Positions 11,652 to 49,030 of a DNA stretch of 64,000 bases are shown here, one piece after another. The notes beneath the pieces are model-generated. The model saw only the letters and a program-made list of their open reading frames with translations. It was not told where the DNA came from and did no database searches. The stretch is taken from positions 62,001 to 126,000 of the forward strand of contig QPGO01000116.1 of assembly GCA_008632985.1 (NCBI GenBank), read 5' to 3'. Every line of letters begins with the position of its first letter. Position 1 is the stretch's first letter. The stretch is from Psammoneis japonica. Taxonomy: Eukaryota. The translations under genes and the position numbers were made by a program.

Positions 11652-12139
11652 CGTTTCGTGACGCTCGGCTTTGAAGTAGAGATGACTGATAGATCTTCTC
11701 AGCTCTAGTGAATACCAGTATTTTTTCTTGATAAATTGGAGCAGACGAAACACAGCCGTCAAATAGTAATCCCTTATCGTTGGATGTTTTTTGTTGGTGG
11801 TTGCGTACGTACCGGTACCGGCATTGCGGCGGTGGGAGGCAGTTGGCGACGGAAGGACGAATTTGACTGACTTCAAGCGAGCAACAAGCAAGCGGTGAGC
11901 AATGCTGTGCACGCAACGGTTCGCCAAGCACAATGTTTCGGTTTGTATTCTCATGCGTGTTTCTGAAGTTTCATGATTATTTTTGGGCAATGCACATCAA
12001 CCTACATTGGATGTGGTGCGACAACAGCACTGTCGCATCTTCTTTGCAAAACTGTGAGGCCCTCTGGGGTTGGTCGCTTTGATGACTGACCTTCATTTCT
12101 TCCTGCAGAAGCTGCACAAGGCTTGGCATGCCGAAGCAG

Positions 12140-14070
12140 CCCCATCCAAGCGAGCCTCAAAAACACCATCACATTGCAATGCTCTCACAAAATGCAAATT
12201 GAAGGACCCATCAAGCAGTTGATGCTGCATGACTGCCACATGTTGTCAAAGAACTCTGATGATGTCTGACAGCAGCACACACAATGTCTTTTGCTCGCTG
12301 CAGCGGGGCAACCAACTGAAAAGATCCAGTCTGTCACAACCAACTCACTGAATCACAGGGTTCAATGCAATTTACACTGTTGTGGGGAGAAGTCAAGTGG
12401 AAGAACTCTGCTGTTGAACAGAGGTGCCTTCTCACTGTGTCATGGTTCACAGCGTGGTGGTGGCCGCAGGGCAACCAGTCAAAAAGAAGACAGGATTTGA
12501 GCAAGATTTTAGTTTGTTGCACACAACTGTGTGTGCTCTCAGTTCCATGCATGATGCATGATGCAGTTTGCTTTTGAGCCACTCAGCTCACAAGAACAAT
12601 GATGGCAGTGCTGACATCATGACACACATCTTTCAGCTCCTGCAATGGCATCTGCATGGATGCTGCTCACATGTCTGCTGTTTGGACAGCAGCAAGGAGG
12701 AGATTTGTTGTTTTCTTCCACCCATTTTCTCTTCAATTTCTGTCAGATCAGCTGTGTTGCTTGGTCACATCAACATCGCTGCAGCTGTCATGTCTCCATC
12801 TAGCTTCTGTGCAGCACCCCATCAAGGCCACCTGGACTGCACTCTGCAGATGCTTGTCCAAGATGTGACATGGTGCCCTGCATGTGTGCACTGAGGAACC
12901 TGACTGTTTGGACCTCCCAAAGCCTGTGTGCAACTGGGCTCAAACTGTGGCTGCATGGTGACATGGAGGAATTGCTTCCCGCCCAAAGACATGCTTTGGC
13001 CTCTTGTTGGCAAGTTTGTCACCATGACCCATTGTGTTGATGTGAACTTGTTTCATTGCATGCTCACTGGACATTTCATCATGGGCATCATTCATTTCCT
13101 CAACAAGTTTCTGGCTGATTGGTTGACAAGAAACAAGCCACAGTCAAGACTGCAACTTGTGGGTCTGAGTTTGTTGCTGCTGGGAGATGTGTGTTGAACA
13201 GATCATCTGTCTGTGCATCACATTGCTCCACCTTGGCATCCCGATTTGTGACACATGATGTTGCATGTCTTGGGGGGACAACCACAAGTTGTTTGTGGAC
13301 AGCGCCACTGTCCCGCACTCCAAGTTGCACAAACAACACACCGCCCTCTTGTTCCATCATGCATGTGAGGCAATTGCCTCTGATGGTTTTCTCAAGTTTC
13401 GCTTTTGTTGAAGGTTCCAGCAACCCTGCTGACATCCTCAGCAAGCGCTGGGATTGCTCCCAGGTTTAGAACCTCCTCCATCCTCTCATGCTTTGGAAAC
13501 CATCTGGCCCTCTGCAGTCCCATCCAAGTGGACTGAGCCTCAAAAACACCATCGCACTCACAACTCTCACAAATTGCAAATTGACCAATCCATCAACAAT
13601 TGATGCTGCAGGACAGCCATGTTGTTAAAGAACTCCACTGTCTGATGGAGCCAAGGCATGCACTGTGTGTCTTGATTGGCTGTGGAGGGGGGCATCCAAC
13701 TGAAAAGATCCAGCTGGTCACAACCAACTCACCAAGTCATGGTGTTCAATGTGATCTTGTGTTGTTGTGGAGGAGAAATCAGATGGAGAACTCTGCTGTC
13801 TGACCAGAGGTGCATGCACTGTGTTGTGGCTCACTGTGGCAGGGGAAAACCAACTGAAGAGACCCAGTTGGCCATGACCAACTCACCAAGACACAGAGTT
13901 CAATGTGATTTTGTGTTGTTGTGGAGGAGAAAACAAGTCAAGGGGAAGAATTCGGCTGTGTGTGCATTCAGAGGGCGGCATGCACTGTGTCTTGATTTTG
14001 CTGTGGTGGGGCAATGAACTAAAATGACACAGTTGGTCATGTGACCAAAACTCACCAAATCACAAAATTC
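12140..14070 (+). repeat. Dispersed direct repeat (~12140-12480 vs ~13515-13850) plus ~150-bp degenerate tandem subunits (13655-14070)
   Basis: Shared strings gagcctcaaaaacaccatc, ccaactgaaaagatccag, tcacaaccaactcac. Confidence 0.8.
12750..13500 (+). mobile_element. Degenerate Ty1/copia (CoDi-like) RT C-terminus and RNase H relic
   Basis: AVMSPSSFCAAPHQGHLD; CLSKM*HGALHVCTEEPDCLDLP; KKQATVKTATCGSEFVAA; SNPADILSKRWDCSQV match recalled copia RT/RNase H motifs; stops and frameshifts present. Confidence 0.9.
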
Positions 14071-17000
14071 AGAAATTTCTCCAGATGCAAAGAAAAAAGC
14101 AAGGAAAACACCACAGAAATCCTTGTCAGCATCAAAAGGCCATCTTTTTCTTTTCAGACTAGAAATGAATTTGCATGTGCCAGAGCCTTTGCTTTTTTCA
14201 ATTTGTGTTTTGTTCTTGTTGTTTGAAATTGAGATGTGTCTTTGGGAGCCCTTCATCCATTGGGCTCTCCGGCTGTCATTGAAGGAGATGGGAGCAACGC
14301 TGAGACCCCATCCTGCAGTGCTTTGCTGGCTGTTGAATTCTGCAAAAGCACAACTTCTTGCTGCTCCAAACAAGAAAGAAAGGTGACAGTTGGAGAAAGA
14401 AATTGAGTGTTTGAAGAAAGAGAATGTGCAGGGATGTGTGCTGCTCACACAACTCATGCCTTTGGCACACTGGCAGAGTGAGAACAAGGTTTTCAAGGCA
14501 TGTTTCACCATGTGCTGGTGAAACAATGGCTCCACTGCTTTCTCCATTGTTGAGTTGTTCCTCAGCCATGGTTGCATCTAGACCATCAACCACAGTGTTG
14601 ACCTCACTTGCTTGGGGTGCCCAGCACAGTTGTTGTCACAACAAATCAATTGGTGCTGGACTGACAAAACTTTGCTGTCATCATCTCTCTCTCTGTGTGT
14701 CTCTGGCCATGCACTGCAGCAAGCATGCCTCATGTCAAACGCACCCAACAAATGATGGCAGAGACAAGAGAGACAGCAAAGAGGCTGCAGCTTTGACTGG
14801 TGGTGACAAACCCTTCAAGTTTCAAGCATGTGGTGACTCTGAGACCCTGTTGGCATTCAATGTCAGCTGGGCCATTCAATCCAGTTGCTGTGCTTGGCTC
14901 TTTTGACTGTGATCAGGGTGTGACATTGTTGTTCCTTTGTAAGACCTGTTCTCCAGTTTCATCATGTTCTTTTTGATGCAGTTAGAAAGCAATCGCGTCA
15001 CAAGTCATTGTCAAAAATTGACTGGTGCATTTGCAAATGTGCTGTTCCAGAGCAATCTTTTGTGTGGTGCAGCCACCCATCACAATGCAGAATCTCTTGG
15101 CAATTGAACAGATCCTCCTCTGGGTGGCTCATCAGGCTTGCACCAGAAAACAAAAACACATCTGTGCACAGAGGCCCAGGCCATGAGAGCTGGTGCTCTT
15201 CAAAATTGCAAATGTCATCATCTGGACATTTTTCCGTGTTGTTGAGACAAGCCAAAACTTGGCCCAGACAGTTGTTTTGCATTTGTTCTCAACATTGTTT
15301 CCAGTTTGACAGCCCTGTTCATTCTTGTCAAACATTTCTTTGACAAGAGCACGAGTGATGTCATCCCACAAGCCAAGCAAATGTGTGCCAAAGAACACAC
15401 ACAGTTGCCATTTCAAAAATTATTTTCTTCCTCATCCTCATCCTCATCCTCCTCATCCTCATCATGGTCTTCTGAACAATCCATGTGGATGAGTGACAGA
15501 TGGAGGAGATGCACAATGGCACAGTTTAACAGCACCATCCTTGGAACATTTGGTGAGAGACAGGACATCACCTTGGACATGGGTGCAATCCATGAACAAG
15601 GACAATCCAATCATGAGCAGGTTGTCCAGGTGTCTTGAAACAGTCAGCCTTGAGATGCTCCCCCAGTCATCTGCAGCATGTTTCCATGCTTGACAAGAGT
15701 GCAACTTGTCAATGATTGAAATTTTCACATGTGTGTTGATTGCATCCACAGATCTTCAACACACACAATTGTTGATTTTGTTTCTTGGCAGTCATTGAGT
15801 CACAAACAAATGAATCTTTTTTGCTTGCTTTGAGCCACCTGTGTGGCTCATTCTGTCCACATTTTAAAAACTTGTTAAGAACAGTTTCATTTGTTTTTTT
15901 CTTCCATTTGTCAGATCTCTGCCTTTGTTTGAGTTGCCTCTGTGTGGCTCACACGAGTGTTTTCTCTGTGCACCACAGTTTGCCACAGCTCAATCTGTTG
16001 TGGCAAAGGGAAGTGAGCTTGGTGGTGACACATTTCTGAAAGGCATTCAAGCAAGTTTTGCACAACATGCCAGTTGACAAGACTCTTGAGACACAGCACT
16101 TCATGACATTGCTCTTTGACAAAGCCATTCTCATCATTGCAGCAATGATTTCCAGTGCTTGGAGCCCGGCAGAGAGAACTGCCTGCGCACTCACCAAGTC
16201 CTGGATCAAACCCACCTTTCATGGTTAAATGGTGCTAGCTGTGCTTGTTGACTCTTGCTGTTGCTCACATTCAATGTCCTTCCATGCAGCAAATGCTTCC
16301 TGGACTGTTGTGTGGTGTTCAATCCAGTGCATTGTTGACAAAATGCACATCATTCCGTGCATGCAAAACAATGAAAATGGGTGTCATCCGACAGAAGGGT
16401 TCCAACCAACTGTCATCATCCAATTGTTGCTGGCAGCATTTTCCACAGTTTGATCCAAATTTTAGAAGCATTGTTGGCTGCTTGAAAATGCCTCTTTGCA
16501 GACAACATGAACAATTTGAGCCGTGCTCCAAATCAATTTTTGGTTGTTTGGAGCTGGCATGTTCACAGGAGATGAGATGTCCAACTGCTTGTGGCTCCTC
16601 AGGACCTCACACAAATTTTTGACACCTGAGAACTGCCCAGGACAGTCTCCTTTTTAAGTCACAGAGGGCGGCGTTTGAGCCATCAATTGAAACTTTTGGA
16701 TGAACAAACACAGACATTGAGTCAATTTGATTGTTGCAGATGATCATGACAAGCAAGGATTGCTGCACTTGCTTTTGTTTTTGACACGGAAAACAGAACC
16801 AAAGAAGAGTGCGTGCCTTTCTCTGTCATCTCTTTTGAATGCACTGTCCAAGGAAGTCATGGGTGTCTGCAGAATGCATGATTCCACTTTGGACCTTCAA
16901 AACATGTGCTGTGGTGTCTGATGCAGAAGAAACAAAGAAATTGAGTGAAAAGTTCAGACAATGAATGAAGGCATTGAATGAAGATGCTCTCTTTGTTGGA

Positions 17001-18199
17001 ACACACACCTTTTGATCACAATGATGTTTCAACACACTCTCCAGGTGTTTGATCCCGTGGTCAACTTGAGTTGTGTTGCGTGTCTGCATTTTGGAATTTG
17101 GAAAGAAAAACAATTGATTTTGTGGGTCACACGAGCATTTGTCACAAATCACAGCAATGGCCGTGCAGACCTGGCCCAAAAACATCTTGCCAAGTCACCT
17201 GTGAGACTCATTTTGTTCTGATTTTGAAGTCTTGTTAAGAACAGCTTCATTTGTTTCCTTTTCCTTCCATTTTGTCCACTCTCTGCCTTTGCTTTGCTCT
17301 GTCTCTGCTGCACCTGTCTTTTTTTCCTGCTGGACACTGCACAACTCATCCTCTGATCTAACACCCACCAACAACAATGGTGCACCTGTGTCACAACCCA
17401 CTTTGTTGTCCTGGTTGGATGTGTGACAATGACAACAACAAGCATGCTCTCCAAAGATGACATTTTCAAACGCATCTCCAGCGTTCTTCTTTCTCCATTT
17501 TGGCCTGAACCCTGATGATGACTTTGCGAAGCACACCCCCAGTGCTGCAGGAAGAGAAGCACTGGGAACACAGGAAGAGCAGCTTGGATTTAAACTTGCC
17601 AAGGCATGGTCTTTGCATCTCATGAAGCAAGCAATGGTGCCACTGCTTGGAAAGCCACCACCAGATGACAGAGACTGGGAAGATTGTCTCATCTTCTTCC
17701 CTGTCACCATTGCCACAAATGAAGACAATGGCCAGAGTTCATCATCCACACATCCTCAGTTCCAAGGGGTTCATTCTGGTGTTGAGTTTGATGACATGTC
17801 TTGGTGTCTCTAATTGGAGCAACATGCTTGCCGGGTGGATGGTGCATGATGCACAGGCCAGTGCCTCTTGAGAAGCTAAAATGGAGCATGTGGTGATGAG
17901 CTTGTCCCCATGTCACAGCAAACATTTGCCAAATGCCAAGCCAGATCATCACCATCACCCCAAATGCACACATTGGTTTGAGTTGCTGCGTGCATGATGT
18001 GCGCCCCAAATGCACTCACTCTGCACATTTGTTGAGTGCTGGGTTGGCCCAACTTTGGTGTCTTTGCACTTTTGATTTGGGAAGCTGCAAGCCTTGTCTT
18101 GGGCAGCAGCAGCCCTGTTGCGTGATTCCTTCACAAACAAGAAGATGCCCAGCTGCACAAAAGGTGTGGAAGCATGGGACCCACAGATCATGTGGCAAA

Positions 18200-19472
18200 G
18201 GAGGTGTGCAGTTGTCTTGGGATGGCATTGGAGGACTCCAGCAGTGGGTTGCCAGGGACATGCCGACAACCATGGTTGGAGAGCAAATGCCTTGTCTTGT
18301 GTCAATGCAGCACCTTGTCTCTCTGACATGACTGGCTTTGGCCCAGCCAGCCAACCTGCAGAGACAAGAAGGTGTGTGCTCGGTTGTCTTGGATGGCATT
18401 GGATGGCTCCATTGGTTCCCATGAGATGCAATGACAACAATGGTTGGGAAGCAAAGGCCTTGTCTTGTGTCAACACAGCACCCCCTGTCTCTTTGACATG
18501 TGGTCTTGGTTCTTTGGCTCAGCCACCCAACCTGCAAGGACAAGAAAACCATCTCCTGCGTGACAGTGCAAGTGATCCATTGTCTTGGGATGGTGTTGGA
18601 TGACTCCATTTGGTCCCAGAGGATGCAGCGACAACAATGGTTGGGAAGCAAAGGCCTTGTCTTGTGTCAATGCAGCCCTTTGTCTCTCTGACATGACTGG
18701 GTTTGGTGACCCAGCCACCCCACCCACAGAGACAAGAAAACCATCAGCACAACAGCGCAAGTGCACCACAGTTGTCTTGGGATTGTCTGTTCAACAGTGC
18801 AAGAGCTCAGTTGTCTTGGGATGGCTTTTGGTGACTCCATTGGATCCCAGAGGACACAACAACAACAATGGGTGGGAAGCACAGGCCTTGTCTTGTGTCA
18901 ACGCAGCACCTTGTCTCTCTGACATGACTGGGTTTGGCCCAGCCAAGAACCAGCCAATTTGCAAGAAAGACAAGGGAACCATCTGTGTGACAGCACAAGC
19001 ACTCAGTTGTCTTGGGATGGGCACAAGAAACTTCACTGGGTCCCTGAGGAGGCAAGAACAACAATGGCTGGGAAGGAAAAGACTGGTCTTGGGCCAACGC
19101 AGCCCCTTTTCTGTCTGATGTGATTGGCTTGCTTTGGTCCAGCCTCTTCACCTCTGCAGAGACAAGGGAGCTTTCTGCACCATGTGACAGTGCAAGTGCC
19201 CAGTTGTCTTTGGATGGCCTCGGGTGCCTCCATTGTGCCCCATGGGAGCCAACAACAACCAGGGCAGGGAGTCAGTGAATGGAAATTCATGGTGTTCCCT
19301 GTCTCTTGTTTGGGAGGAAAACCAAGAGAGAGAACAGAAGAGCACAACCCACCTTCAAGTTGCACACTTTTTTCACAAGGCTGGTCTCCAACGTTGTCAT
19401 TTCACTGGCATGAAGGGTCTGTTTCTGAGCTTTCTAGAGAGAGGTGATTGTGTTGTTGGCAGTGGCAATTTT
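18200..19472 (+). repeat. Degenerate tandem array of ~170-230-bp units plus a conserved right-hand segment
   Basis: Core caatggttgggaagcaaaggccttgtcttgtgtcaa recurs at ~18270, 18437, 18633, 18865, 19060. Confidence 0.85.
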
Positions 19473-20046
19473 TGCATTGCAGGCTTGCTTTGCACTTTTG
19501 CTGCAGCTGCTTGCACATCTTTTTGTTTTGGTTTTTGCAAAGGCCACGCATCTGCCAGCAAAACAACAGCCACATTCTGCATTCATTGACAGACATTTCT
19601 TTTGGGTTGATGCCACAGGTGGTGTGGTGCTTGGAGGTTCCAAGCAGCAAGGGAGTCTTGCAGGAAGGGACTTCATCATGCTCCTTGAGAAAGTTGAGAT
19701 CTTCTTGTTGAACTGCAGGGGAACAGCTGTCAGACACATTGTTGAAAGTGCATCAGCTTCTTCATTGGTGGATGCTGCAGCAGCGGCTGCAGATTCTGGG
19801 TCACCGGCCAGTGGAGCAGCTTTGGACAAAGAGCCTTGATGTTGCCAAGGGCTTGTCCTGGAGCCTTGCTTGCCTGGGCTGCCTGGGAGAACCTCAACCT
19901 TGCACTTGAGCACCACAAGCACCACCTCCACCATGGCCAGCACCACCTCCACCATGGTCACTGGTGCTGGCACTGGTGTGACTGGCATTGTTTTGGCCAG
20001 CACCTTGTGGGTTGTGCTTCTTCCTGTTTCTTGGTGGCACGGTCAA

Positions 20047-20563
20047 TGAACACACCAAATGGCAAAAAGGTGTTGATTGAACAACAATGGCTGGGAAGCA
20101 AAGGCCTTGTCTTGTGTCAATTCAGCACCTTGTCTCTCTGACATCATGACTGGATTTGGCCCAGCCAAGAACCAGTTTGCAAGAAAGACAAGGGAGCCAT
20201 CTGATGAGGCAAGGGAGCTTTCTGCACTGTGTGACAGCACAAGTGCCCAGTTGTTTTTGGATGACCTTGGGTGCCTCCATTCTTGTGTCTCAGGGGAGCC
20301 AACAACAGCCAGGACAGAGAGCAGGGAATCATTGAATGGAAATTTGTGGTGTTCCCTGTCTCTTGTTTGGATGGAAAACCAAGAGAGAACAGAAGAGCCA
20401 CAGACCCACCTTCAAGTTGCCCACTTTCTCCATGAGGTTGGTCTCCAAACTTGTCATTTTGCTGGCATGGAGGGTCTGTTTCTGAGCTTTCTTGAGAGAG
20501 GCGATTGTCTTGTTGGCAGTGGTAATTTTTGAACACACCAAATGGCAAAAAGGTGTTGATTGA
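20047..20563 (+). mobile_element. 449-bp copy of the 18.9-19.5 kb repeat flanked by a perfect 34-bp direct repeat
   Basis: tgaacacaccaaatggcaaaaaggtgttgattga at 20047-20080 and 20530-20563; insert ends ttgttggcagtggtaatttt, like 19453-19471. Confidence 0.7.
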
Positions 20564-21629
20564 GGTCCCAGAGCTGGGAGTGTGCAGCAAGAGTGTGAAA
20601 AAAAAAACTTGTCAAATGCATGTGTGACATGATGACTGAATGCATGATTCATTGAGGTTGTTTCAAATCATTCAAACCATCGTGTTGCAACAAAATCATT
20701 GATTTCTCAAACTAAATTGTTGCTGAAAAAGAGATGCTGACGGGAATCAACTGACTGTCAGGCTCACATTTTGGCCAAAACCATGAATTGTCACTCCCTC
20801 ACAAGACACAAAAAATGCAAACTCAAGTTGCATCTGACGTCTGACAATGAGAGCAGTGGGGGGACAGGCAATGGCAATGTGGACAGGACAGAATAAAGTG
20901 CAGGGCACAAGGTGAGAAAAACAGGTGGCAAATGCACGGAGATCAGGTGCACAATGCAAACAACTGAGGAGGACACTTGCACACATCTTTGCACACAGAT
21001 GTCTGGACATGTGACCTGAGCTGCAACGGAAGACAGGCAACAGGGAAGGGTGCAAAGGTGAGCAGAAGCAGCACATGAGACAAGATTGCATGAGTGAGAA
21101 ACACAAGACATGCACAAAACCTGATCATTGTTGCAAAGTTTTCTCTTGTTGCAGGTGATGCTTTGGCCTGCCAAACAGAAGGAGTGTGAGACAGATCATT
21201 GTAGAATGATGTTGTTGCCTGGTGCAGATGATTGCAGAGAGAGCACGAGTGGTTGCAAGGGAGGATGCAAGGATCAAAACATCACACCGGTCATGCAGAA
21301 CCTGTGAAGGACAAAAGGAGCTGGTGGAATGCAGGAGGAGAAAAACAAGAACAGGAAAAAGAGAGCATTGTTTGGTGTGCAATGCAGAAATGACAAAACA
21401 GAACATTTGCAAATCAGATGACAAGCAGCACACAGCCGATGTGCAAAATCAGGTTGACAAGACAGTTGAACATTGTCATTGTCAAAAATGAACAATGTCA
21501 GAAAGTTGTTGTGAACACATGGTTGTCAAGACAGAAAAATGTGCAAGTGACAAGTTTTGTTGTGGGCAGATGCAAAAATGATGTTAAAACAATGTGCAGA
21601 TGTGAAAAATTGACAAGAATGTGTGCACA

Positions 21630-22405
21630 ATGAGACTCATTTGCATTGGCTGTTAAATCCCACTTGGAAAGTTGAGACAACAATTGGAGCCACAACATTT
21701 TCCAGATGTTGAATTGTCCAGCAGCACTTGTCCAAAAGCAAAAAACATGAGATTGGGTTTCAAGATGCCATGGCAGAGCCCACCCCCATGCCACAGCTTC
21801 CCACTCCATTTCTTGTGCACAGTGCAAAAAGTCTGTCCACACATCAAAACTTGAGGAGGTGTCTGTGCCTTGAACCTTGAACTGACAAATTGTCACTTCT
21901 CTTGCAATGCAGATGTGCAAGAGGCAAGTGACGAAGATGATGTTGTGGCTGACAATCAAGAAAGCAGACGACACACTCCCTGGTCAGGAGGTCTCTGGCA
22001 TTTGTTGTTGCCTGCATTCCATGGAACAACTTTGGGTTGTTTGTGCAGGTCTGCTTGGGCATGTGTTGCAGGGCATGTGCCGGCAATGGAGGAGTTGTTG
22101 AGACTGACTCAGGTGTTTTGAAAAAACATCCATGAAAACACAAGAGCCAACCTGAGTGTTGCTGCCCCCATCTGACTCAAAATGTGCTTGGATGCTGAGC
22201 CAGCAATGTGTGCAGTTGCAGCCACCTTGGACAACTTGACAGCCAGATCACTCCTGTCAAGTGGGCACCACCAAATGCTTCACCACCACGGACATGGCGA
22301 GCTGCGAGCTCAGGCATGAACTCAAGAGGAGGCTGTGCTCCATGCTGCTGCGCACTTGCCACAGCAACAAAGAGAGAAACGAGGAGAGAACAGCGCACTT
22401 CATGG
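21630..22405 (-). pseudogene. Degenerate secreted-protein gene, possibly lipase class 3-like
   Basis: Signal-peptide-like start, then fragments in different frames: AVKLSKVAATAH, GTDTSSSFDVWTDF, VGFNSQCK; no GHSLG found. Confidence 0.3.
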
Positions 22406-22984
22406 TGGACTTGGGTCAGCGAATGTAATCAATGTTGATGACAGCGAGACTGTGACGATGTTGATGTTGAAAAATGTGAGAGGAGAAAAAATGATCATTC
22501 TGGCGGGCGTGAGCGATGATGATGATGTTGTGTTGCCCGCCTGTGTGCCCAATCCAAATGGCCGTTTGGAAATTTATTTGAATTTCATGCACATGTTACC
22601 ATGCTTAATATTTTATCTTCCTTTCTTTAAGCGAGAGTGACACGACTTAATAATATACAAAATTTAACACTCATTAAAAGTTCATTGCTCTATATTCAAC
22701 ATTCCACACTGAAAGCTCATTGGACGTTTCTTTATAAACGATATAACCAGTTACGTGCCAATCATAACCTTGAAACAGTCAAAAGCAACGAGAAAGTGAA
22801 TGCTCGCTGGTACAGTCCCACATATTTTCTACGTGACTGAAACAACTGCCGGTGCGCGCACAAAACGAAGCGCGTCTTTCGTGTTGGGCAGAACGAGGCA
22901 GGCAGGAAAAGTCGGTTTGCTTTGTGCACTTCGTGTCTCCGACAACAAAGACATCAACAACAGTCAACAACAACATCTTGGAAC

Positions 22985-30125: not shown

Positions 30126-30659
30126 AATACAGTTTACAGTATCACCAGAAGATCGCTATACGGTGGTAATAAAAAATGTCTATCAACAGCAACAGTGATA
30201 TAATGTCGAAAGTAGTTGGCAGGGTGCGCATCGACCAAAACCGCAGACATACGAAATGACATCGTGAGCATTGAATGAACTCTAGAAAACATGTTGTGTC
30301 AATCGCACAGCGCTCTAGATCCTTTACCCCTGTACACCCACTTCTAGTGGCGCTCCCGTGCCAAGTCATTCACTGATGTGCACTAATAACGAACCGTCAC
30401 ACGGGAAAAACCTCCTTCGCTCCCTAGTCGTAATCTTAGTTCAGTCCCAATGATCGCACATCATCAAGAAAAAAACTATCCCCTTGAGTGATGCTCTACG
30501 CAAAACGGGGTACACGAAGAAGACAGATGCATGTCACAAACATATTCTACGAGTTTCTTGGCTGGATCTATTCTGTTTCTTGATTCCGCCAAAAACCACC
30601 TAATTTCAGCCTGTCGGGAGCTGAGTTGTTGATCAACGTAAAGAACAGAATTCGCAGGC

Positions 30660-33480
30660 AAAGGGCCTTGCAGGCTCTGGGAGGGAGGTTCTGTCATCTT
30701 CAACCCCAGCAGGTCATCGAAGTCTTCTGCAGCAAGAGTGACTTTCATTGGGGCCACTGCCTCTTCCAATTTGAGTCCTGATGCTGTCTGCTGTGATGCT
30801 TGGTTTCCTCTTCATCAATGGAGAATCTGTGTGCAATGACAAGAAGGTGGCACACAATGAATGTGTGCCTGGAGCATTGTGCATGACAAGTTTGTTTTGT
30901 CCAAACATGCCCAAGTCTGTCCAAAGAGCTCAAGGTTCTCCCTGTGTCAAACAGCAGAACAAGCCGTTTGTTTTGGCAATGTTGTTTGTCATCTTCATTG
31001 ACCCACAGCAGAGCTCCACTTCTTTGGCAGTGCAATCCATGTGGTGAGCAACAACAGAGCCCTGCTTTCCATTTGCCAGATGTTTTTTTGCTTGATTTGC
31101 CATGTTAAAAATGCAACAAGCATTGTGCCATGAAGCTCGCTGTTGTTGTTGCTGGCTTTGCTGATGAAATCTCTTTGTTGACATTCCACAGAGACACACA
31201 TCATTTTGCTGTGATTGATGTTGCCAGAGAATGGCAAGACAACTTGACCAAAAATGGTGAGGTTCTCTCTGTGCCAACCCATTTTCCCTTTGACAGTTGC
31301 TTTTTGCTTGTGCCACATCCTTGTTGTTTCTCATTTTGTTGCATCTGAGGTGCTTGCTGTCCCCACATTACAATGAAGGAAGCAAAGACAGATGTTGCAC
31401 CCTGCCAGCATGCTCTGGACAATGTTCAAAGTGATGTGGAATGTTCTTGTTGCCAGAGAATGGCAAGACAACTTGACCAAAGATGGTGAGGTTCTCTCTG
31501 TGCCAACCCATTTTCCCTTTGACAGTTGTTTTTTGCTCATGTCACATCCTTGTTGTTTCTCATTTTGTTGCATCTGAGGTGCTTGCTGTCCCCACATTAC
31601 AATGAAGGAAGCAAAGACAAATGTTGCACCCTGCCAGCATGCTCTGGACAATGTTCAAAGTGATGGATTGCCAAGGTTGTTTTGTCCAAACATGCCCAAG
31701 TCTGTTCAAAGAGCTCAAGGTTCTCCCTGTGTCAAACAGCAGAACAAGCCATTTGTTTTGGCAATGTTGTTTGTCATCTTCATTGATCCACGACAGAGCT
31801 CCACTTCTTTGGCAGTGCAATCCATGCCATGAGCAACAGCAGTGCCCTGCTTTCCATTTGCCAGATGTCTTTTTGCTTGATTTGCCACATTAAAAGTGCA
31901 ACAAGCACTGCACCATGAAGCCTGCTGGCGTTCTTGTTGCTGCTGGCTTTGCTGATGAAATCTCTTTGTTGACATTCCACAGAGACACACATCATTTTGC
32001 TGTGATCAATGTCCTGACTTTGGTTTTCAAAAGCTTTCACTTGCCTTGTTCCGATGAGACAATGTCACTGGCTGTTGCGATTTGGCTCATTGTCACTCAC
32101 TGCATTGTCTTCAATGTCACGTGCTTCACTGCCACACAATCAACAAGCTTGCTGACAACATCAAGGGTCAAGTGCACCAAGAGAGTTGCCAAGCATGTGT
32201 GGTGAGGAGCAGTGCTTTGGTGTGTCTGTTGTTGAAAAAACTTTCCAGATTCAAACACCATGCAGACTTCTTGCACTCGAACTTTTTTGTTGACATGAAC
32301 ATTGGCCCTGGCTCTCAAGATTTGTGCCACAAGAAAAAAAAAACAAAATGGGTTGTCTGGCTCAGCTGACAACAGCCATGGGGAAGCATGCAATGAGCTT
32401 TTTGTTGTCTGAAGATGGTTGCATTGCTTGTAAAGAAGGATTGCTCAGGTTCAACAATGCTCAAAATGCCAGCAAGTTCTTGATCAAAGTGCCATGATTG
32501 TGCGCAAACCTGAGGCAGGCAGCGATGCAGCAAAAACTCTCATTGAAAAAGAAAACAGCCCATCCTTTTTTCCATTTTCATTTTGCCTGTGGGGGGCTGC
32601 TGTTTGTCAAAAGAGAAATGGTGGGTTGTCTTGTTTCACCCAGCACCAGCTTCAAAACCCCACTTGTGCTAGAGTCTGTGCCTTAGAGTGAAGCCAGCAC
32701 TGAATTCTCATTGATTGGCCAGACCTGGCCCAGGAAAAATGCTCACATTTTCAAGCCACTTTGCATCGCCAAATTGTTGCAGCTGCTCAGCAGGCGCACA
32801 CATCTCTCATTCATTGACCCTGTCTGAGAATGAGTTGGAAAGACACTTGGCTTGTGCCACTTTGAGTTCTAACACAAAATTCCTCTAGAGCACCACACTC
32901 CTGTTGGAGGGCACACCATGAGGTGGCAACTCTTGTCAGCTTTTGTTTGCTTCAGAGATTGCTTCATGAGCTTGCTTGTGATCCAGGTGGTGTGCACACA
33001 GCTCTGCTTTTGAGCTTGCTTGTTGCTCCAACATGTGGACATGGCACATCAGACAAAAAGTCAAGCAACCAACTTGCTGTTGTGCTCTCTGTGCTGTGCT
33101 TGCTTGGCGGACACTGGATCAGCGCATCATTTTTGCAGCCTGCTGGATTGAAGAAGTGTGCGCAGCAGCACAACCTCGCCATGATCACAGTGGGGACATG
33201 TGATCATGCACCAAGAATGCTTGGGCATTTGGAGTTGATCTGGCATCATTTGGCATGGTGAGCTCAAAAGGTGCTGGCACCTTTTGCACAGATGACTCCC
33301 CTGCACAAGTGTGGCACCAGGGATGCTGTGCAGCTTGATTTTCCAACTCTCTGTCAGCAACAGCCCGCTCTTCACTTTGTTGTGTGTGTTGATGAGCAGC
33401 TCTGGCTAGAGCAAGCTTTGTCACTCTTTACTCCATGTGCTGAAACCAGAATTCAAGCGGCAGCTGTGGCTCTGTCCACG
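30660..33480. other. TpA- and CpG-depleted hypermutated domain 2
   Basis: Same composition as domain 1; returns to normal TpA content just upstream of the NOC1 gene. Confidence 0.9.
30890..32005 (+). repeat. A-B-B-A direct repeat arrangement
   Basis: A 30890-31214 ~ A' 31678-32005; B 31219-31436 ~ B' 31448-31665 (period 229, nearly identical). Confidence 0.9.
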
Positions 33481-41510: not shown

Positions 41511-42062
41511 GAACGAAAAGTTCACGTAGGATTATGTACTACGGCTACGCAAAAAAGATTCAATGTCCGTGAAATTTGTTCAATGTTGAGCCGCTCGTGT
41601 TAATTCCCCGTAGGACGAAAAATTCACGTAGGATTATGTACTAGAGCTACGTGAAAAAGATTCAATGTCTCTCAAATATCCTCAATGTTCGTCGAACGAA
41701 AAGTTCACGTAGATTATGTACTACCGCTACGCAAAAAAGATTCAATTTCCGTCAAATTTGTTCAATGTTGAGCCGCTCGTGTCAATTCCCCGTAGGACGA
41801 AAAATGCACGTAGGATTGTGTACTAGAGCTACGTGAAAAAGATTCAATGTCTCTCAAATATCTTCTCAATGTTCGTCGAACGAAAAGTTCACGTAGATTA
41901 TGTACTACCGCTACGCAAAAAAGATTCAATTTCCGTGAAATTTGTCGATGTTGAGCCGCTCGTGTTGAAGTGCCCCGTAGGACGAAAAATTCACGTAGGA
42001 TTATCTACTAGAGCTACGTGAAAAAGATTCAATGTCTCTCAAATATTCTCAATGTTCGTAGA
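41511..42062. repeat. Tandem repeat, 3 x ~183-184 bp, each a dimer of related ~100 and ~83 bp subunits
   Basis: gaacgaaaagttcacgtag at 41511, 41694, 41878; both subunits share cgaaaa..tcacgtag(g)attatgtacta..gctacg..aaaaagattcaat. Confidence 0.93.
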
Positions 42063-43849
42063 ACATTCTCTTGGGCTTTTCTTGGAATCGTCAACCAGCA
42101 AACCAGGGCTTGGTGATGTCTGTGGTTCAAGTGTCTCACAAAATGTCTCATCAGAACCATCCACGCACCTCTCCAGTCAACTTGATTGTGGTGCTTGCAG
42201 CCCACAAATGGCCTGACACAACAGGTGGAGAGAGCGCACAATGCTGCATCATGATTCCTCATCATCAGCAACACACAATGTTCTGTCTTGCACAGAGTTG
42301 TTGTCTTTTTGTGCTTTTGCTGTCGCCAAACAATTCTTGACAAACTGGCGACACGAAGATGTGAGGATGCATGATGTTTTTGTCCACTGTCCCTGACAGG
42401 CCAGCTGACTGCATTGACTGTGCAGCATCCACTTTTCTCTCTTTTTCTTCAGATCTTCGTCATTGTTGAAACTGACTCTCATGGCAACATCTGGAAGTTA
42501 AAGACCCCCGCAGCAGTCCATTTTGCTCTCGCGTTCTTCTTGTTGTCTGAAATTGCCCGGCGAGAGTTGGATCTTGTTTTCCTCATCCATCACCACAAGC
42601 CAAGTGATGCCATCCACTGAAGTGCCAATCATCTGAGCACAAAGAGGAGGAGACTTCTTTTTGCCCAAAGTGGAGACCATGTCTCCTCTTTTTGCTTTCT
42701 TTTGGAACTCAGCTGCTTCTTGGCAGCCTTGTTGGAAGCTCGCTTGTTGTTCCACAGTGCTGGCAAAGAAAGACCAAGTGCCCAGCTTTGTGCAGCAGCA
42801 CAACAGCTGCTCACACAAGCTTTGCCAGAGGGGAGGACATTTGAAAAACTGGTTGTCAACAACTTTGACTGCAGAGACAACTGGGTCAATGTGGCTCAGT
42901 CTTCACAGAGTCACAACAAGAAAGGGGCCTCACATTAGGAAGAAGCTTGATGACAGGAAATGAGTGGCATGTCATTGGCATTGAATGAGTTTCTGGGTTG
43001 CTGCAAGAGGGCTCCAAGGTGGCTCTCAGGTTCCTGCTGCAAATGACTGTGGCTGCAAGACATTGCAGTTGAAAACTGTCATCATTGGACATTGATTTTT
43101 AACAACATGGCATCAATCTGGGCTTGCATCATGTGATTGCCCTTGTCAGGTGAGGAGACAAGGAGGTTGGGTTGTTTGCACATGATCCCCAGTTTGAAAG
43201 TGAGCCATGCATGCAAAAAGCACAAAATGAAAAATCCATGTCATCATCTCAATGGAAAAGAAGTGCCACGTCAGATTCGCGCAGATGATGTGGGTGAATG
43301 ATTGAAAGACAAAAGCAACTGGTGCACTCAAGTGTTCAAAATTGATCACCTCAAAATGAAAAAGTGGCCAATCTTTAAGCCAGGAGTCAATGACACCCCA
43401 GCCCAAAAATGATCAGGGCAATTTGAAATTTGCAATCTTTTGCGGCTTCATGCTGATGAATTTGTTGTGTTCAGCCCCACTGCCATCAAAAGTCATTGGA
43501 TGCTGTTTCGGGCACAAACACCACTTGTGAATTTGATCATTTTGAAAGTGGTCAGCCCCAAACCCCAACTCTGTCTCACCCATCTGTCTGTGGTCTGTGC
43601 ATGAGGGCAGGGGGGAGACACTGACAGATTCTCAAAGTGAGTTGTTCCCACCTCACATTGGTTCTTGCAACCACTGGGGCCCCAGAGATTGGTGCCCAAT
43701 GCCAGTCGTGCCCTGCACATCATGTTCCAGTGTCATTTTTGGCTCTCTTGATTGTTGGCTGGCTGTGCCCAATGCCAGCTGTGCCCTGCACATGCTTCAA
43801 TGCCATTTTTGGCTCTTTGGTGCAAGCTTGATTGTTGGCTGGCTGGTGC

Positions 43850-44500
43850 AGGGCCAACCTCACAGGTGGCATGACCACAGAGAGGATGCAGCATGGAACT
43901 TCATGTCCGCCACATCCTCTGTTGCCCAAATGACCAAGCCTGGAGACACACCTTCCTTCAGGGTTTTCACAAGTGCTGTGATGAGATTGACGCTGTGCCC
44001 CCCTTGCAAGACTTTCTTCTTTCATCATTGGAGGCATGGTTTCATGACAAAATGTTGTGTGAGTTGGATGTTTGCCCAATGCTCCATCCTTCATGGAGAG
44101 AGCTCAGTTGTCTGGCATTGGATGACATCAAGTTTTTAATGGCCAGCACTCATCCTCATGGAGCACCTTCCAAGAGTTGCATCTCCAACAGTCTCTGGCT
44201 TGCCAGAGCAACACTGCAAGGAAAACCAGGTTCAGACAGGATCATGCATTTGACGTTTGAAGTTTGTGGTGGGAGCTTTGGGAAAAGCACAACAAAGCTG
44301 TCCATGATGTGGATTGAAGGAAATTTTCACAAAGGCACAAAGCCAAAGCTGAAGTCACTGCCATCCACAACAAATGCCAGGAATGTCTTGTCCAGGACCA
44401 AGCCACTCTCATGGATTTGTTTGAAGTGCACACGACACACGGCAGCTTGCAGATTTAGAGTTGGATTGCCGCAATCAAACTGTGCCCAAAAGCCAGTGTC
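43850..44500 (+). mobile_element. Degenerate non-LTR retrotransposon ORF2 C-terminal region (relic may extend left toward ~42100)
   Basis: HILCCP..WRHTFL, GIG*HQVFNGQHSSSWSTFQELHLQ and LWWELWEKHNKAVH resemble the recalled IGW...GR.S..W and W..W..RN..VH motifs of LINE C-termini. Confidence 0.65.
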
Positions 44501-45954
44501 AAACAGGTGAAGCACTCCATGCTTTGCGGCACTCACACCATTGTCAGTTGCTTTGGTGGGGGCATCCCCTTCCACCCATCCCAGCTGGTCCTTGTCCCCT
44601 TCTGCCACACTGATGCAGTGCACTGGAAGTGTGAGTCAGCTGGTGCTGGCATTGCTGGCAAAGGAGTGATGGCACTTTAAAAAATTAGATCTTTTTCATG
44701 GAGCTTGATGTCTGACAGCCGCTGCAGTCTGTGCAACAACCAACCTTTGTCAAGAATTTCTCCAACTGTCCCAACTTGTTTTCCTTGGGATTTCATCTTC
44801 TTTCTTGGGGGGCAACTCTCCTGCATTGTTCAAACCATCTGTCTCCCCCCCACCAGGGGAAGATTTGCTGTGTGTCATGTGGCTCATGACTGAAACTTCC
44901 CTCCAACACTCTCCCCTCATGATGCAAAAACATCATGTGTTCATCACAGCCAACAAAAGCCACTGCATTGTTCTCTTTTGTTTTTGCTTTCACCAAGGAC
45001 TTTTTGCCATCTCCTGTTGTGCCCAGTTGCACACAACTTGTTCTCTTGGTGGTGGCATCATCATTCCTGCATGGATGCAGGGATCTGTCAGGTTGTGAGC
45101 AATGTTTGAACACAGGTGCAAATGGGCCCTCTCTGCCACTGAACACAACAACACAATTTCTTTTTTTCCCATTGTCGACAACACCAGCAGAGAGTGTTTT
45201 CAATGTGAAGTCTCCTGCTGCTCTGTTGAGGACAATGGCGCTTGCATGTTGGACACCTTTTCATGCCATTGCCATTTGTTTTTGCAGCTGTTTGTGTGTG
45301 TTTTTTGGCATCTTTTCTCCATGCATGTCTTGTTTCTCATCAGTCTTGTGCTGTCAGGATTCCAACACCTGTTGCCCTTGCATGGTGCAAAGTCAGCAGC
45401 ATTTTGGCTGCTGACATGCCCACCACCACACAATGCTGCAAAACCATGGCACCTGCCAACAGCACTCAATGACCCAAAATGTCATCCCAATGGTGAGCCA
45501 AACTGTCATCCATTCAGGCCACCTTCTCCCCATTGTCAGCCAATGGTGCACCTGCCCCTGCAACCCCAGTTGGGAATCTCTGTCACAACTTGCTTTCTGT
45601 TGTCTCTGACTCATGCGCGCAATTCTGTTCTTCATTGCCTGCCAATGATGCTCAATTTTGCTCATCCAAAATGGGCCATTTTACTTCAAACAGGTCCAAC
45701 TTGTCCATCATGCTTGGAAATGCAGCTGGTCAGGCTGCCAGCTCATTTTGCTCTCTCTTTTTCTTCACACTCATGCCAGACCCAACTTCAATGTGTTCCA
45801 CCCTCACAAACACCTTGATCTTGTCACAATTCAACAAGTTCACTGCCCTTTTCTCAATTTGCAGAACCACATGATTCAACTTGGGTGATGAAAACAAAAA
45901 TCACCCATCTTGATCACCATGTCCTCCTCCTCCCCCCCCCCCCGGAAGGCAACA

Positions 45955-47909
45955 GTGCACGAAGCACACAAAAATTGCCATTTGACTGTTTGAAGCACGT
46001 TGTCGTCGCGATTGCCATGGTTGCTTTAATTCTCTGCTGAAGGTGAGTTGATCATCTTGTTCTTGTTTTGAATTGGATCTGCCGGAGTTAAGTCAGTCAT
46101 TGAATGTCGTCCGCACATGATCACCATGCAGACCTGAAGGCTTGGGTCCTTGACGGTTTTCTCCTCTGTGCACTTGATTGCGCATGTCTTTGGAAGTTGG
46201 TTCAAGGTGAAATGATGGTTGCCTGTCAAAGTGGTCTGTGGTTCCAATGGAGACACACCATGATTGCCAGCAAACTTGCTTCTTGCTTGTGCACTCAATG
46301 CTTGCAAACGTCCAATGCAGCAGCAACCCATTGCCAGCCAATGCACTTTTTAGTGCTTGAGTTGTTTGAGCAGGAACCACATGAGGGCCAGCCCCTCTTT
46401 CATCATTTTCTCATCACTCGCCAAAAACCTTGTCAACCACTTGCAGTTGAGAGAATGAAATGGAGAGGTTGAACCACGAATGATCGAGAGGATGCGCCGG
46501 CACTCATTGTGCCCCATGTCATCTGATGGTGGAGAGAAGCTTTTTCAAACTTGGAAACTGCAAGAGCAGGAAGTGAAGAGAATTTGACATCTCTTTTGCG
46601 CGAGACTGTGTGAGTGGACATTGAGAGCCCTTCATGAAAACCCAGCCAATTTGATCAAATGCGGGTGCTTCCTTTCATCCATTCAAATGACAAGCAGCTC
46701 AAGAATTTCTGCATGACATGCTTGGTCCATGGCACAGACTCTGCCCCTCTCTCCAAATCCTTCTCATCAACCAGCAATTTTGAGACACAAGGTTTGGCTG
46801 CATGCCACCTTTGAGAGCACCCATGGACAGCACATTGGACCACCCAGCAGACAACAACCAGTGATCCAAACAACACCTTGGACCCAGGTGGGCTCTGAGG
46901 CCAAAACAACCCCCCACAGAGACAAAGACATGCTCCACAACAATCCACCACAGTTGCAACCAGCCAGGCGTTGGACCATTTGATCAACTCCCAATCAAAT
47001 GGAAACAACGGAAACTGGTGGTTGGTCCATCCAATTGTGACAAATGTGACAATCAACAGGACAACGCAAACGACTTGTGTGACAGGCGCATCTCATGGCT
47101 CATGTCAAAGAAATGCAAAACAAGGCCAGAAGAGACACGCAGCCACAAGTGAATGAAAGCCAAGGCAGCCATCCAGCAGCCCAGATTGTGGTTCACAACC
47201 GCTCGCACAACAAGCAAGCGTTGCATCATTGTCATCATCTTCATGGGCATGATGTGGAGGTTGGAGGCAAAGAAATAAATCGTGGAGAGTTTGGAGCTCG
47301 TGCTGTTCAGAAACATGACTGACGTCATTGGGGTTCGCAACACAAAGCACACAAAATGTGACAGTGAAAAAACCGTTGCTTTTCCTGCCACATTTTCAAA
47401 AATTTTGAAACGGCAAGCCAAGCTGAACGTCCCGGTAACCGGCAAATCTGAATCACTTCACTCATTGTTGCACAAAGCACACAAAAATCGCCACCATTTG
47501 ACTTTTTGAAACACGTCGTCGTCGCGATTGCCATGGTCTCGTCAGTTCTCTGCTGAAGGTGAGTTGATCGTCTCGTTCTCGTTGCGAATTAGATCTGCTG
47601 GAGTCAAGTCATTGAATGTCATCCGCACACGATTGCCATGTAGACCTGAAGGCTTGGGTCCTTGACGGTTTTCATCTGTGCGTTTGATTGCGCATGTCTT
47701 TGGAAGTCGGTTCGAGGCAAAATGACGATTGCCTGTCAAAGCAGTCCGTGGTTCCGAGACGGAGACACACCACGATTGCCAGCAAACTCGCTTCTTGCAT
47801 GTGCGCTGAATGCTTGTAAACATCCAATGCAGCAGTGACCCGGTGCCAACCAATGCACTTTTTAGTGCAATGGTTGTTTAAGCAGGAACCACATGAGGGC
47901 CAGCCCCTG
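45955..47909 (+). repeat. ~440-bp direct duplication (45955-46398 vs 47470-47909)
   Basis: Alignable end to end; many differences fall at CpG or TpA sites. Confidence 0.92.
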
Positions 47910-48439
47910 CTTTCTTTTTTGAACACGCTGAACGCCTGTTGATGTCGTGGACTGAGACGGTGTGCTAGATGCCCCGAAGGGCAGCCTTTTTCGTGAAGGT
48001 TGCAAGGTGGTTCAGACCGCTTGAGTTGCTCATTGAGCATCTCACATCTGATCCCCCGCAGGTTTGACACTCCCATGGGTCGCCGGCCCATCATGTCAGC
48101 TGTGTTCTCCACGTCCCACAGCGTTTGAAGATCTGTTTTGTTGCGTTTGCGATTGTGACCGTCTCGCTGAGTTGTGCTTCATAACTCACACTCTTTTTCA
48201 GATTTGATTTTTGTTTTTGACAGACGACATGAATGGAGATGTCAATGGAGAAGCCATCATTTAGAAGCTTGTTTGTTGCTGGTTGGATGTCATCGCTGGT
48301 GCACCTTTCACTGTGGTTCTCAACTCCGTTTGAAGAACGCTTGACTGCTTCGTCTCGCTCAAATGTCCTTTTTGGCGTGCGTGCAAGCCATCTCAAGGCC
48401 AGGAAGCACAAGCATGGCCAAGCTTTTACATGCTGTGCA

Positions 48440-49030
48440 AGAAGATCATCAATTGCTGGCTCATTTTGACTGTGGAAATCTCTTGGCATGAGGCTCTCGT
48501 CCCCGTTCGGGCACTGCAAGAGTGCGTCGTCGCAAGATTGTCGTTCGCTCAAGCCGCGCTGCATTCGTCTTCTTTCGGACGCAAAGCTTTGACATCCATG
48601 TCGAGCCTGACACTCCACTGTCCTTTTCTTCCGACCTTCCCAAGTCCTCCTCCAAGAACTCTCTCTTAACATGCGGCTCTCGTCCCCGTTCGGGCACTGC
48701 AAGAGTGCTCCGTCGCAAGATTGTCGTGCGCTCAAGCGGTGCTGTGTTCGACATCTATGTCGAGCATTGACACTCCATCATCCTTTTCTTGCGGCCTTCC
48801 CAAGAAGATCATCGATTGCTGGCTGACTTTGACGATGGAAACCTCTTGGCGTGCGGCTCTTGTCCCCCCCTCTGGAACTGCAAGAGTGCTCCGTCAAAAG
48901 ATTGTCGTTCGCTCAAGCCGTGCTGCACTCGTCTTCTCTTGGACGCAAAGCTTTGACATGTGCATCAAGCCTTGGTGCCCTCTCGTCCTTGTCTTACAGC
49001 CTTCATGAGCCCTCGTCCAAGAACTCACAG
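48440..49030 (-). pseudogene. Three degenerate tandem coding repeats resembling helicase-associated (HA) domains
   Basis: Repeated TWEGRKKRTVECQARHG ... NGDESRM resembles W..R...L.EY...HG ... G..S.M, with Y->C; frameshifted. Confidence 0.45.

Follow-up and report, generated by a model that had tools for sequence, protein, structure and literature searches.

A 64-kb stretch of the Psammoneis japonica genome carries repeat-bearing blocks depleted of TpA and CpG: a probable case of in-situ hypermutation

Introduction

In the chlorarachniophyte alga Bigelowiella natans, two integrated viral regions are reported to mutate about 1000 times as fast as the remaining genome; 230 of the 231 mutations in these regions are A>G or T>C changes, each of them located at TpA, with a de novo rate of TpA change to TpG or CpA of about 6e-7 per site per generation in the integrated viral DNA (bioRxiv 10.64898/2026.01.13.699255). 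The same preprint describes clusters poor in TpA and rich in CpA+TpG, reports an enrichment of reverse transcriptase and DDE domains among genes low in TpA, and contains the proposal of its authors, Mettrop et al., that an adenosine deaminase acts in defence. Here we describe a signature of this kind in a diatom. It lies in a 64,000-nucleotide stretch of Psammoneis japonica DNA (GenBank assembly GCA_008632985.1, contig QPGO01000116.1, positions 62,001 to 126,000), hereafter the window, in which a decayed piece of a Ty1/copia-type retrotransposon, the copia relic, sits within one of three blocks that have lost most of their TpA and much of their CpG.

Several other systems share features with what we find. 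Repeat-induced point mutation (RIP) of ascomycete fungi converts CpA to TpA, making TA and new TAA and TAG stops and lowering GC content; like the pattern in the diatom blocks, it is a transition hypermutation of repeated or transposon DNA that is limited to particular regions, sharply bounded and accompanied by skewed dinucleotide frequencies. Long terminal repeat retrotransposons of the diatom Phaeodactylum tricornutum are reported to be CpG-methylated (Maumus et al. 2009, PMC2806351), and the decay of methylated CpG in transposons yields the same CpG to TpG or CpA changes that we observe. The ADAR, APOBEC and AID deaminases of animals also produce context-dependent clusters of transitions against viruses or repeats, and the 5' U favoured by ADAR, as discussed in the B. 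natans preprint, parallels the T that precedes the mutated A. Full-text literature searches returned no report of TpA hypermutation in diatoms, terms for it were absent from a 2025 preprint on diatom transposons, and no mention of diatoms was found in the portions of the B. natans preprint that were searched.

Results

The density of TA and CG divides the window into two kinds of DNA (Table 1). Blocks A to C together make up 27.7 of the 64 kb (43% of the window) and hold TA at 9% and CG at 33% of the density outside, where TA, CG and TG+CA number 40.5, 57.5 and 141.6 per kb. Per 500 bases, about 20 TA outside fall to about 1–2 inside the blocks, and the observed/expected ratio (o/e) of TA falls from about 0.5–0.8 to about 0.05; GC content is 0.465–0.50 in the blocks and 0.48 outside. 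What was lost as TA and CG has been gained as TG and CA. Relative to ancestors assumed to have had the composition of the present non-block DNA, the changes per kb are TA -37.5 and CG -49.2 (sum -86.7) against TG+CA +88.5 in block A, and TA -37.2 and CG -50.6 (sum -87.8) against +90.1 in block B. For the sub-blocks of block C, the corresponding values are -38.2 and -48.8 (sum -87.0) against +83.2 in C1, -34.5 and -15.1 (sum -49.6) against +45.2 in C2, and -39.4 and -43.2 (sum -82.6) against +82.0 in C3; in every block, TG and CA together rose by as much as TA and CG fell.

The edges of the blocks are sharp to about 50–150 bp, and the adjoining genes keep their TA. If there were no targeted machinery and a genome-wide, context-dependent bias were simply stripping TA and CG from all unselected DNA, with genes protected by selection, TA might well be under-represented outside the blocks too, as it is; however, the abruptness of the edges argues against such a bias, as does non-coding DNA outside the blocks, which carries TA at or above the genic level (32, 42 and 43 per 500 bp at 41501–42000, 59501–60000 and 9001–9500). 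Moreover, about 40 TA per kb at synonymous and boundary coding positions would be untenable beside the removal of 91% of TA next door. We regard a genome-wide bias as distinctly improbable.

Losses of TA and of CG are separable. In the middle of block C (46001–54500), TA stands at 6.0 per kb (15% of the outside density) and CG at 42.4 per kb (74%), and at the right edge of block A, beside a gene, CG recovers about 300 bases before TA. The decay of methylated CpG can account for the CG half only: it cannot remove TA, and in 46001–54500 the loss of TA is ahead of that of CG. Either this region is younger or less methylated than the rest, or the process acting on TA is several-fold faster than CpG decay. 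The only domain found in the region is a single weak LRR_8 match (49627–50142, minus strand).

The loss of TA also depends on the flanking bases. We expressed the survival of TA as its density in the blocks divided by that in non-block DNA for each tetranucleotide together with its reverse complement, so that the values are equilibrium ratios against a proxy ancestor and not rates. Survival is 0.091 for all TA (102 left) and ranges from 0.74 at TTAA through 0.275 at CTAA/TTAG, 0.21 at CTAG and 0.154 at GTAA/TTAC to 0.045 at CTAC, 0.027 at both ATAG and ATAA, 0.016 at GTAC, and 0 at ATAC and ATAT. RTAY is removed far more completely than YTAR (R, purine; Y, pyrimidine): TTAA supplies 30 of the 102 survivors, TTAG/CTAA 25 and TTAC/GTAA 19, while ATAT and ATAC/GTAT are entirely gone.

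To read the direction of these changes requires a sequence whose ancestral state can be recovered, and the copia relic in block A offers one. Translation of 12701–13542 gives pieces of a copia-type pol C-terminus scattered over all three frames. A 71-residue in-frame piece (13196–13408, with TGA as X) matched 175 proteins at E ≤0.001 in a HMMER search of 1.84 billion representatives, several full-length polyproteins among them. The C-terminal 282 residues of P0063 (1881 residues), the best match among the long proteins, were then the query of a word-index search that returned 1465 proteins at E ≤1e-20, of which the 120 listed, all full-length (1037–2068 residues, every one with PF07727, i.e., RVT_2, the copia-type reverse transcriptase or RT) form our reference set of relatives. 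Homology to these RVT_2-bearing polyproteins places the relic in Ty1/copia-type pol. RVT_2 lies at 1367–1577 of P0063 and the relic corresponds to residues about 1621–1872, beyond RT, the part in which copia-type elements carry RNase H.

A frameshift-aware alignment of 12500–13700 with the column profile of the 120 relatives (score 512) matched 247 codons, with six frameshift steps (12838, 12950, 12987, 13123, 13182 and 13394) and three in-frame stops (TGA at 12866 and 13256, TAG at 13467). When eight long pols were compared with the window by tblastn, 12739–13514 was the sole matching stretch, and a profile hidden Markov model (HMM) of pol, built from 60 full-length sequences and run on all six frames, recovered three frame pieces across 12748–13499 (independent E-values 1e-20, 9e-17 and 1e-13). 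A fourth HMM match, at 15740–15982, was rejected (independent E-value 0.81). Neither search found further pol pieces in the 64 kb, and RT, integrase and protease are not present in the element. What remains of this copia-type element is thus a short and defunct piece of its 3' part.

Table 1. Positions of the blocks, repeats, genes and codons discussed in the text (window coordinates; n, relatives in the reference set)
Feature	Position	Strand	Remarks
Block A (10.6 kb)	12004..22574		TA 2.9/kb, CG 8.2/kb, TG+CA 230.1/kb
Block B (2.8 kb)	30640..33406		TA 3.3/kb, CG 6.9/kb
Block C (14.4 kb)	42060..56459		middle part 46001-54500: TA 6.0/kb, CG 42.4/kb
Ty1/copia-type pol relic, C-terminal ~250 residues (post-RT, RNase H region)	12730..13499	+	frameshift-aware alignment
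Repeat copy upstream of relic	12136..12450	+	75.5% identical to 13514-13834
Repeat copy downstream of relic	13514-13834		direct repeat of 12136-12450
Third, partial tandem copy	13787-13959		same repeat as 12136-12450
Former Tyr codon TGC	12851	+	relatives (n=120): Tyr 117
Former Tyr codon TGT	12905	+	relatives (n=120): Tyr 98, Phe 16
Former Tyr codon TGC	12929	+	relatives (n=120): Tyr 66, Phe 30, His 16
Former Tyr codon CAT	12954	+	relatives (n=120): Tyr 120
Former Tyr codon TGT	13033	+	relatives (n=120): Tyr 98, Phe 22
Former Tyr codon TGT	13158	+	relatives (n=120): Tyr 114, Phe 6
Former Tyr codon CAC	13229	+	relatives (n=120): Tyr 118
Former Tyr codon TGC	13262	+	relatives (n=120): Tyr 102, Phe 15
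Former Tyr codon TGC	13455	+	relatives (n=120): Tyr 114
Val>Ala codon GCA	13361	+	Val in 120/120 relatives; GTA in other copies (13362 = T, 22 X1 contigs)
CCA (Pro) codon	12796	+	relatives split Leu 63, Met 56
Sigma-70-type factor (regions 2 and 3)	28992-30122	+	nuclear-encoded

A sequence-only reading of the relic had claimed, against a presumed CoDi/copia consensus (CoDi denoting groups of diatom copia elements; Maumus et al. 2009), that conserved Tyr codons had become Cys or His and that TpA was consequently lost by mutation on both strands. All six codons that it cited (at 12796, 12851, 12905, 13158, 13229 and 13455) read as it gave them, and at the five Tyr sites among them that consensus can be replaced by real relatives, in which Tyr occurs in 117, 98, 114, 118 and 114 of 120. 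Four further changed Tyr columns (12929, 12954, 13033 and 13262) can be added. Across 16 conserved Tyr columns of the relatives (1920 cells), there are 1766 Tyr, 109 Phe, 5 His and no Cys, such that intact relatives carry Tyr rather than Cys or His. The sequence-only reading had named Cys or His in intact relatives as an outcome that would refute it, and this refutation fails. The DNA baseline, taken from the 80 best metagenome loci encoding the closest intact relatives, has a mean TA o/e of 0.73 (range 0.33–1.11) and not one 1-kb window below 0.15; no second hypermutated locus was present among these 80, every one being ordinary in TA. Because CGN makes up 67% of Arg codons in these loci and Tyr is equally shared between TAT and TAC, CGN and TAY ancestors are plausible for the relic.

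Since the relatives have both Tyr and ordinary TA, the TA of the relic was lost by mutation and not inherited as composition, as the sequence-only reading had maintained. A composition that was TA- and CG-poor from the start, whether inherited or selected, has nothing in its favour beyond the composition itself, and the same is true of an artefact of assembly or of base calling at modified bases. An artefact is further opposed by contigs from a sequencing run (X1) that agree with the window (see below) and in which further repeat copies do carry TA and CG, and by the expectation that strand-dependent miscalls would yield CG and TA too, both of which are missing. We find these two explanations barely credible.

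We considered a column conserved when one residue occurs in at least 75% of the 120 relatives, and 172 aligned relic codons qualify. Tyr is kept at none of the eight conserved Tyr columns (six are Cys TGY and two His CAY) and Arg at none of the 13 conserved Arg columns, whereas the remaining conserved columns keep their residue in 109 of 151 cases (Fisher p = 6e-5 for Tyr against these columns; p = 2e-7 for Arg). Tyr codons were, in other words, changed more often than others. The 247 aligned codons of the relic encode no Tyr, 17 His and 17 Cys (6.9% versus 0.74% in the relatives), and these Cys fall in eight Tyr-majority columns, five Arg-majority columns, one true Cys column and three elsewhere. 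Only two TA (o/e 0.046) and eight CG (o/e 0.178) remain in the 721 bases of 12750–13470.

Changes affected 63 conserved columns, 39 of them by one transition, 14 by one transversion and 10 by more than one step. Sorted by dinucleotide context, which is the check that the sequence-only reading had proposed along with tblastn or HMM alignment, the 39 transitions comprise 23 at CpG, 10 at TpA and 6 in other contexts. Read on the coding strand, the TpA events in well-conserved columns of the relic are seven TA>TG and three TA>CA, among them the Val>Ala change at 13361; and since both kinds occur on this strand, both strands of the DNA were hit. Separate CpG decay, which had likewise been claimed, is evident from the CpG events: a single CpG transition explains 11 of the 13 Arg columns, of which five became His, five Cys and one Gln, and others produced Ser>Leu at three TTG codons (12908, 13289 and 13349), Thr>Met, Ala>Val and Pro>Leu, as well as C-preceded G>A at codon boundaries. 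At 13446, a His present in 117 of 120 relatives has become Arg (CAC>CGC), an A>G change at CpA rather than TpA that created a new CpG; it may reflect off-target activity or ordinary mutation.

That both outcomes lie on one coding strand bears on whether the mutations arose in RNA. ADAR-like A-to-I hyperediting of retrotransposon transcripts before reverse transcription would have inserted elements that were already mutated, and it would suit both the 5' U preference of ADAR-type enzymes (noted by Mettrop et al.) and the fact that the sole identified element is a retrotransposon. However, ADAR acts on RNA and would mark one strand of the retro-copy, whereas the blocks display no strand coordination: TA>TG (7) and TA>CA (3) are found together on the coding strand of the relic, and the counts of TG and CA nearly match in each of the interior 1-kb windows of the 27.7 kb (absolute skew ≤0.16 in 1-kb block windows, two boundary windows excepted). 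Nor does editing of transcripts fit blocks that are continuous over 3–14 kb with no other trace of reverse transcriptase, or a loss of TA that reaches about 300 bp past the loss of CG at a gene-side block edge. An origin in RNA is very improbable on this evidence. As to APOBEC, it changes C and not A, whereas the diatom process acts at TpA.

Copies of the same repeat reached different outcomes at the same sites, having mutated in place and independently of one another. Two direct repeats flank the relic (12136–12450 and 13514–13834), as long terminal repeats would, but they belong to a family that is high-copy on its own and has a third copy in tandem; the differences among its copies are largely CA versus TG at the same dinucleotide. 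In 21 paralog alignments inside blocks (5266 dinucleotide columns), CA versus TG is the commonest double difference, with 56 cases against 5 for an AC versus GT control of equal composition, although the counts lack independence because the tandem families behind them overlap. The other pairs are TA/TG (7), TA/CA (9), CG/TG (32), CG/CA (33) and CG/TA (0). A tandem family of block A (18198–19270 and 20079–20531; units of about 170–230 bases, 5–6 copies, 65–94% alike) has copies that differ at CpG-derived sites, e.g., CAACGCAG, CAATGCAG and CAACACAG.

Repeats also occur outside the blocks. A tandem repeat at 41506–42064 (units of roughly 90–100 bases, 68–94% alike) abuts block C with normal TA and CG, so being a short tandem repeat is not by itself enough to draw the process. 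The intergenic, non-block stretch 8535–9176 contains direct and inverted repeats of 42–274 bases at 85–98% identity, with normal TA and CG.

The X1 contigs, which represent one sample of one study and are possibly the assembly's own source, allow a comparison with further copies. They are identical to the window over 9400–12518, which spans a gene–block edge, and over 12862–13059 and 13133–13490 in the relic, at a k-mer depth of about 60–69. Summed contig depth is 1,900–10,500 over 12310–13473 (about 10,500 in the bin 12310–12600) against about 60 in the neighbouring gene, which indicates that the relic and the flanking repeat belong to high-copy families. Copies in X1 differ from the window at 250 places, 197 of them transitions. 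Among the 40 of these 250 differences for which contexts are given, the copies have a majority TA where the window has CA or TG at five (13362, 15832, 16066, 16102 and 17586), the opposite TG/CA outcome at three adjacent pairs (12797/8, 15773/4 and 17659/60), and CG where the window has TG at two (12612 and 13043); at two others the window has TA and the copies TG or CA, 24 are of other kinds, and one is ambiguous.

This comparison also bears on the derivation of the Pro in the relic's PSSF from a Leu encoded by CTA, as had been proposed. The CCA codon is there, but the proteins leave the ancestral Leu ambiguous. In the X1 copies, 12797 is T (13 contigs) and 12798 is G (11 contigs), giving CTG if in the same contigs, and CTG in other copies versus CCA in the window is the expected outcome of an ancestral CTA, with which the copies therefore agree.

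Similar relics exist in other public records. Of 151 database proteins of the family besides the reference set, 125 span at least three conserved Tyr columns, and five of the 125 (P0004, P0031, P0036, P0069 and P0153) have Cys or His at ≥60% of these columns. In P0004, 8 of 10 Tyr columns are Cys or His while Arg or Lys is retained at 9 of 15 Arg columns, and in P0031 the corresponding numbers are 3 of 3 and 5 of 6, which suggests a loss of TpA without much CpG decay in the sequences behind these two records. At the column of 13158, Cys occurs in two more distant relatives, P0003 and P0004, the latter being itself a hypermutated relic (0% Tyr).

Between the blocks lie ordinary genes, encoding PPR, amino-acid permease, TB2/DP1+C2, DUF6824, MAK21/CBF, sigma-70 factor, DEAH helicase and CBS proteins. 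The MAK21 gene has its best named relatives exclusively in diatoms (50–58% identity), and a nuclear sigma-70-type factor is expected in a plastid-bearing alga. A Pfam search of 134 stop-to-stop open reading frames (ORFs) of at least 90 residues in the blocks returned no transposon or viral domains and four weak matches at chance level. The window has 35 stop-to-stop ORFs of at least 200 residues, several of them inside blocks (e.g., 13903–14577 on the minus strand and 55394–56431 on the plus strand): because TAA and TAG have vanished from the blocks, TGA is the only stop left and many long, spurious ORFs result. Gene callers would over-predict in such DNA.

Discussion

The explanation that we consider probable is hypermutation of repeat DNA in situ, strand-symmetric and converting TpA to TpG or CpA, together with CpG decay. 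In this reading, the window is nuclear diatom DNA made up of ordinary genes and, between them, blocks of degraded, transposon-derived repeats, and two context-specific transition processes would have acted on the blocks in place, at the level of DNA and on both strands. The first would turn TpA into TpG or CpA (A:T to G:C at 5'-TA-3'), with a strong preference for RTAY over YTAR, and would be near completion; the second would be the usual decay of methylated CpG to TpG or CpA. In the relic, the former would have made Cys and His from TAY Tyr codons and the latter Cys, His, Gln and stops from CGN Arg codons. Because both processes end in TG and CA, GC stays near 48% while TA and CG vanish. Of these elements, the data show the direction of change, the action on both strands, its independence from copy to copy, the sharp boundaries of the blocks, the separability of the two losses and the tetranucleotide preference.

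The likeness to B. natans, as far as the preprint describes that system, extends to TpA change into TpG or CpA, to the involvement of both strands, to the confinement to bounded regions of non-host or silenced DNA, and to a low TpA content with high CpA+TpG. In the diatom, the first of these is seen in the 10 TpA events of the relic, with TA kept in other copies, and the boundedness in three blocks that contain the copia relic and high-copy repeats. The differences are also considerable. B. natans belongs to the Rhizaria and the diatom to the Stramenopiles; the targets in B. natans are inserts of a 186-kb giant virus and a 25-kb virophage that still bear TpA (rho 0.45), whereas those in the diatom are repeat and transposon debris near saturation (o/e about 0.05). 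The spectrum in B. natans is almost exclusively AT>GC, in contrast to the relic, where CpG events outnumber TpA events by 23 to 10; we read these CpG events as a second, separable process, and they, with the CG/TG and CG/CA differences among paralogs, have the form that CpG decay predicts. A term look-up in the B. natans preprint gave no mention of CpG, and its Results and Discussion describe no RTAY preference. Mutation rate was measured in B. natans, and the diatom blocks are known from their end state alone. What the diatom adds to the account in the preprint is thus threefold: a CpG component that can be separated, a preference for RTAY, and a target made of transposon debris.

Fungal RIP, for its part, makes TA, so that its polarity is opposite to that of the diatom process. 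Rather than C>T at CpA and an excess of TpA, the blocks have TA reduced to 9%, CA enriched, TAA and TAG lost, and GC unchanged.

We infer that the process acting on TpA is a targeted, enzyme-driven hypermutation, which by analogy might serve as a genome defence like that proposed for B. natans, and that the CpG decay reflects methylation of the same DNA. The chemistry of the former would most likely be deamination of adenine to hypoxanthine in DNA, beside a 5' T, in silenced repeat or foreign DNA. The sequence-only reading had assigned the changes to A>G on one or the other strand; the direction from TpA to TpG or CpA holds, but the chemistry is not given by it, for TpA is its own reverse complement and A>G on either strand is not distinguishable from T>C on either strand.

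By the same palindromy, T>C before A and A>G after T yield identical products, and the pattern could have arisen through thymine, by chemical alteration of the T in TpA (e.g., oxidation to 5-hydroxymethyluracil, or conversion to a J-like base) or by biased mismatch or glycosylase repair in silenced DNA. The symmetric RTAY preference suits recognition of duplex DNA as well as of a single strand. There are also partial parallels, in that dinoflagellate DNA carries 5-hydroxymethyluracil preferentially at TpA and E. coli loses CTAG to very-short-patch repair, although we know of no such thymine modification in diatoms. Nothing in the sequence favours thymine over adenine deamination, and the sole experimental precedent was read by its authors, likewise without proof, as adenosine deamination, at least in what the preprint presents. 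The thymine route seems to us unlikely.

Several considerations weigh against targeted in-situ hypermutation of TpA as we have described it. No enzyme, base modification or de novo event has been observed, and all of the evidence consists of final states, seen in a single 64-kb window and in the contigs of one sample. A single transposon fragment was recognized in 27.7 kb, so it is this relic, together with local repeats and contig depth, that justifies calling the blocks repeat or foreign DNA; and in one part of block DNA (13474–15510), depth is near single-copy at ≥85% likeness. The mass balance assumes an ancestral composition, and the paralog counts overlap, as noted above. A runs test on TG and CA, which is a weak test, detected no strand-coordinated clustering (z from -2.66 to +0.30 in the blocks versus -3.5 to -0.46 outside) and so lends no support to a processive single-strand deaminase. 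Finally, with no CpG component in the B. natans preprint as searched, the two cases are not identical.

A broader proposition can be put forward tentatively, at somewhat less than even chances: that diatoms possess a heritable, DNA-level defence which resembles RIP with the opposite polarity, in which targeted editing of adenine (or thymine) erases TpA from silenced repeat or foreign DNA, with RTAY preferred and TTAA spared, at a pace exceeding the decay of methylated CpG. As a chlorarachniophyte has this signature too, such a defence would be of old origin and common to the SAR supergroup or an even wider group.

Diatoms are major primary producers of the ocean, and transformation and gene-editing tools are available for some of them. 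A kind of hypermutation described once before appears here in a diatom and near saturation, and if the process is active, diatoms would inactivate invading DNA by a mutational route without precedent before the 2026 preprint on a distantly related alga. With a second, independent lineage in which the footprint is far stronger, the editing enzyme would become a tractable target. For annotation, blocks without TAA and TAG give long false ORFs and conceal a transposon origin from domain searches, and hypermutated relics such as P0004 already stand in protein databases as proteins. For genome evolution, a strong A:T to G:C process would offset the usual bias from GC to AT and reshape repeats at constant GC. 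TA-rich foreign constructs introduced into diatoms might face the same mutation.

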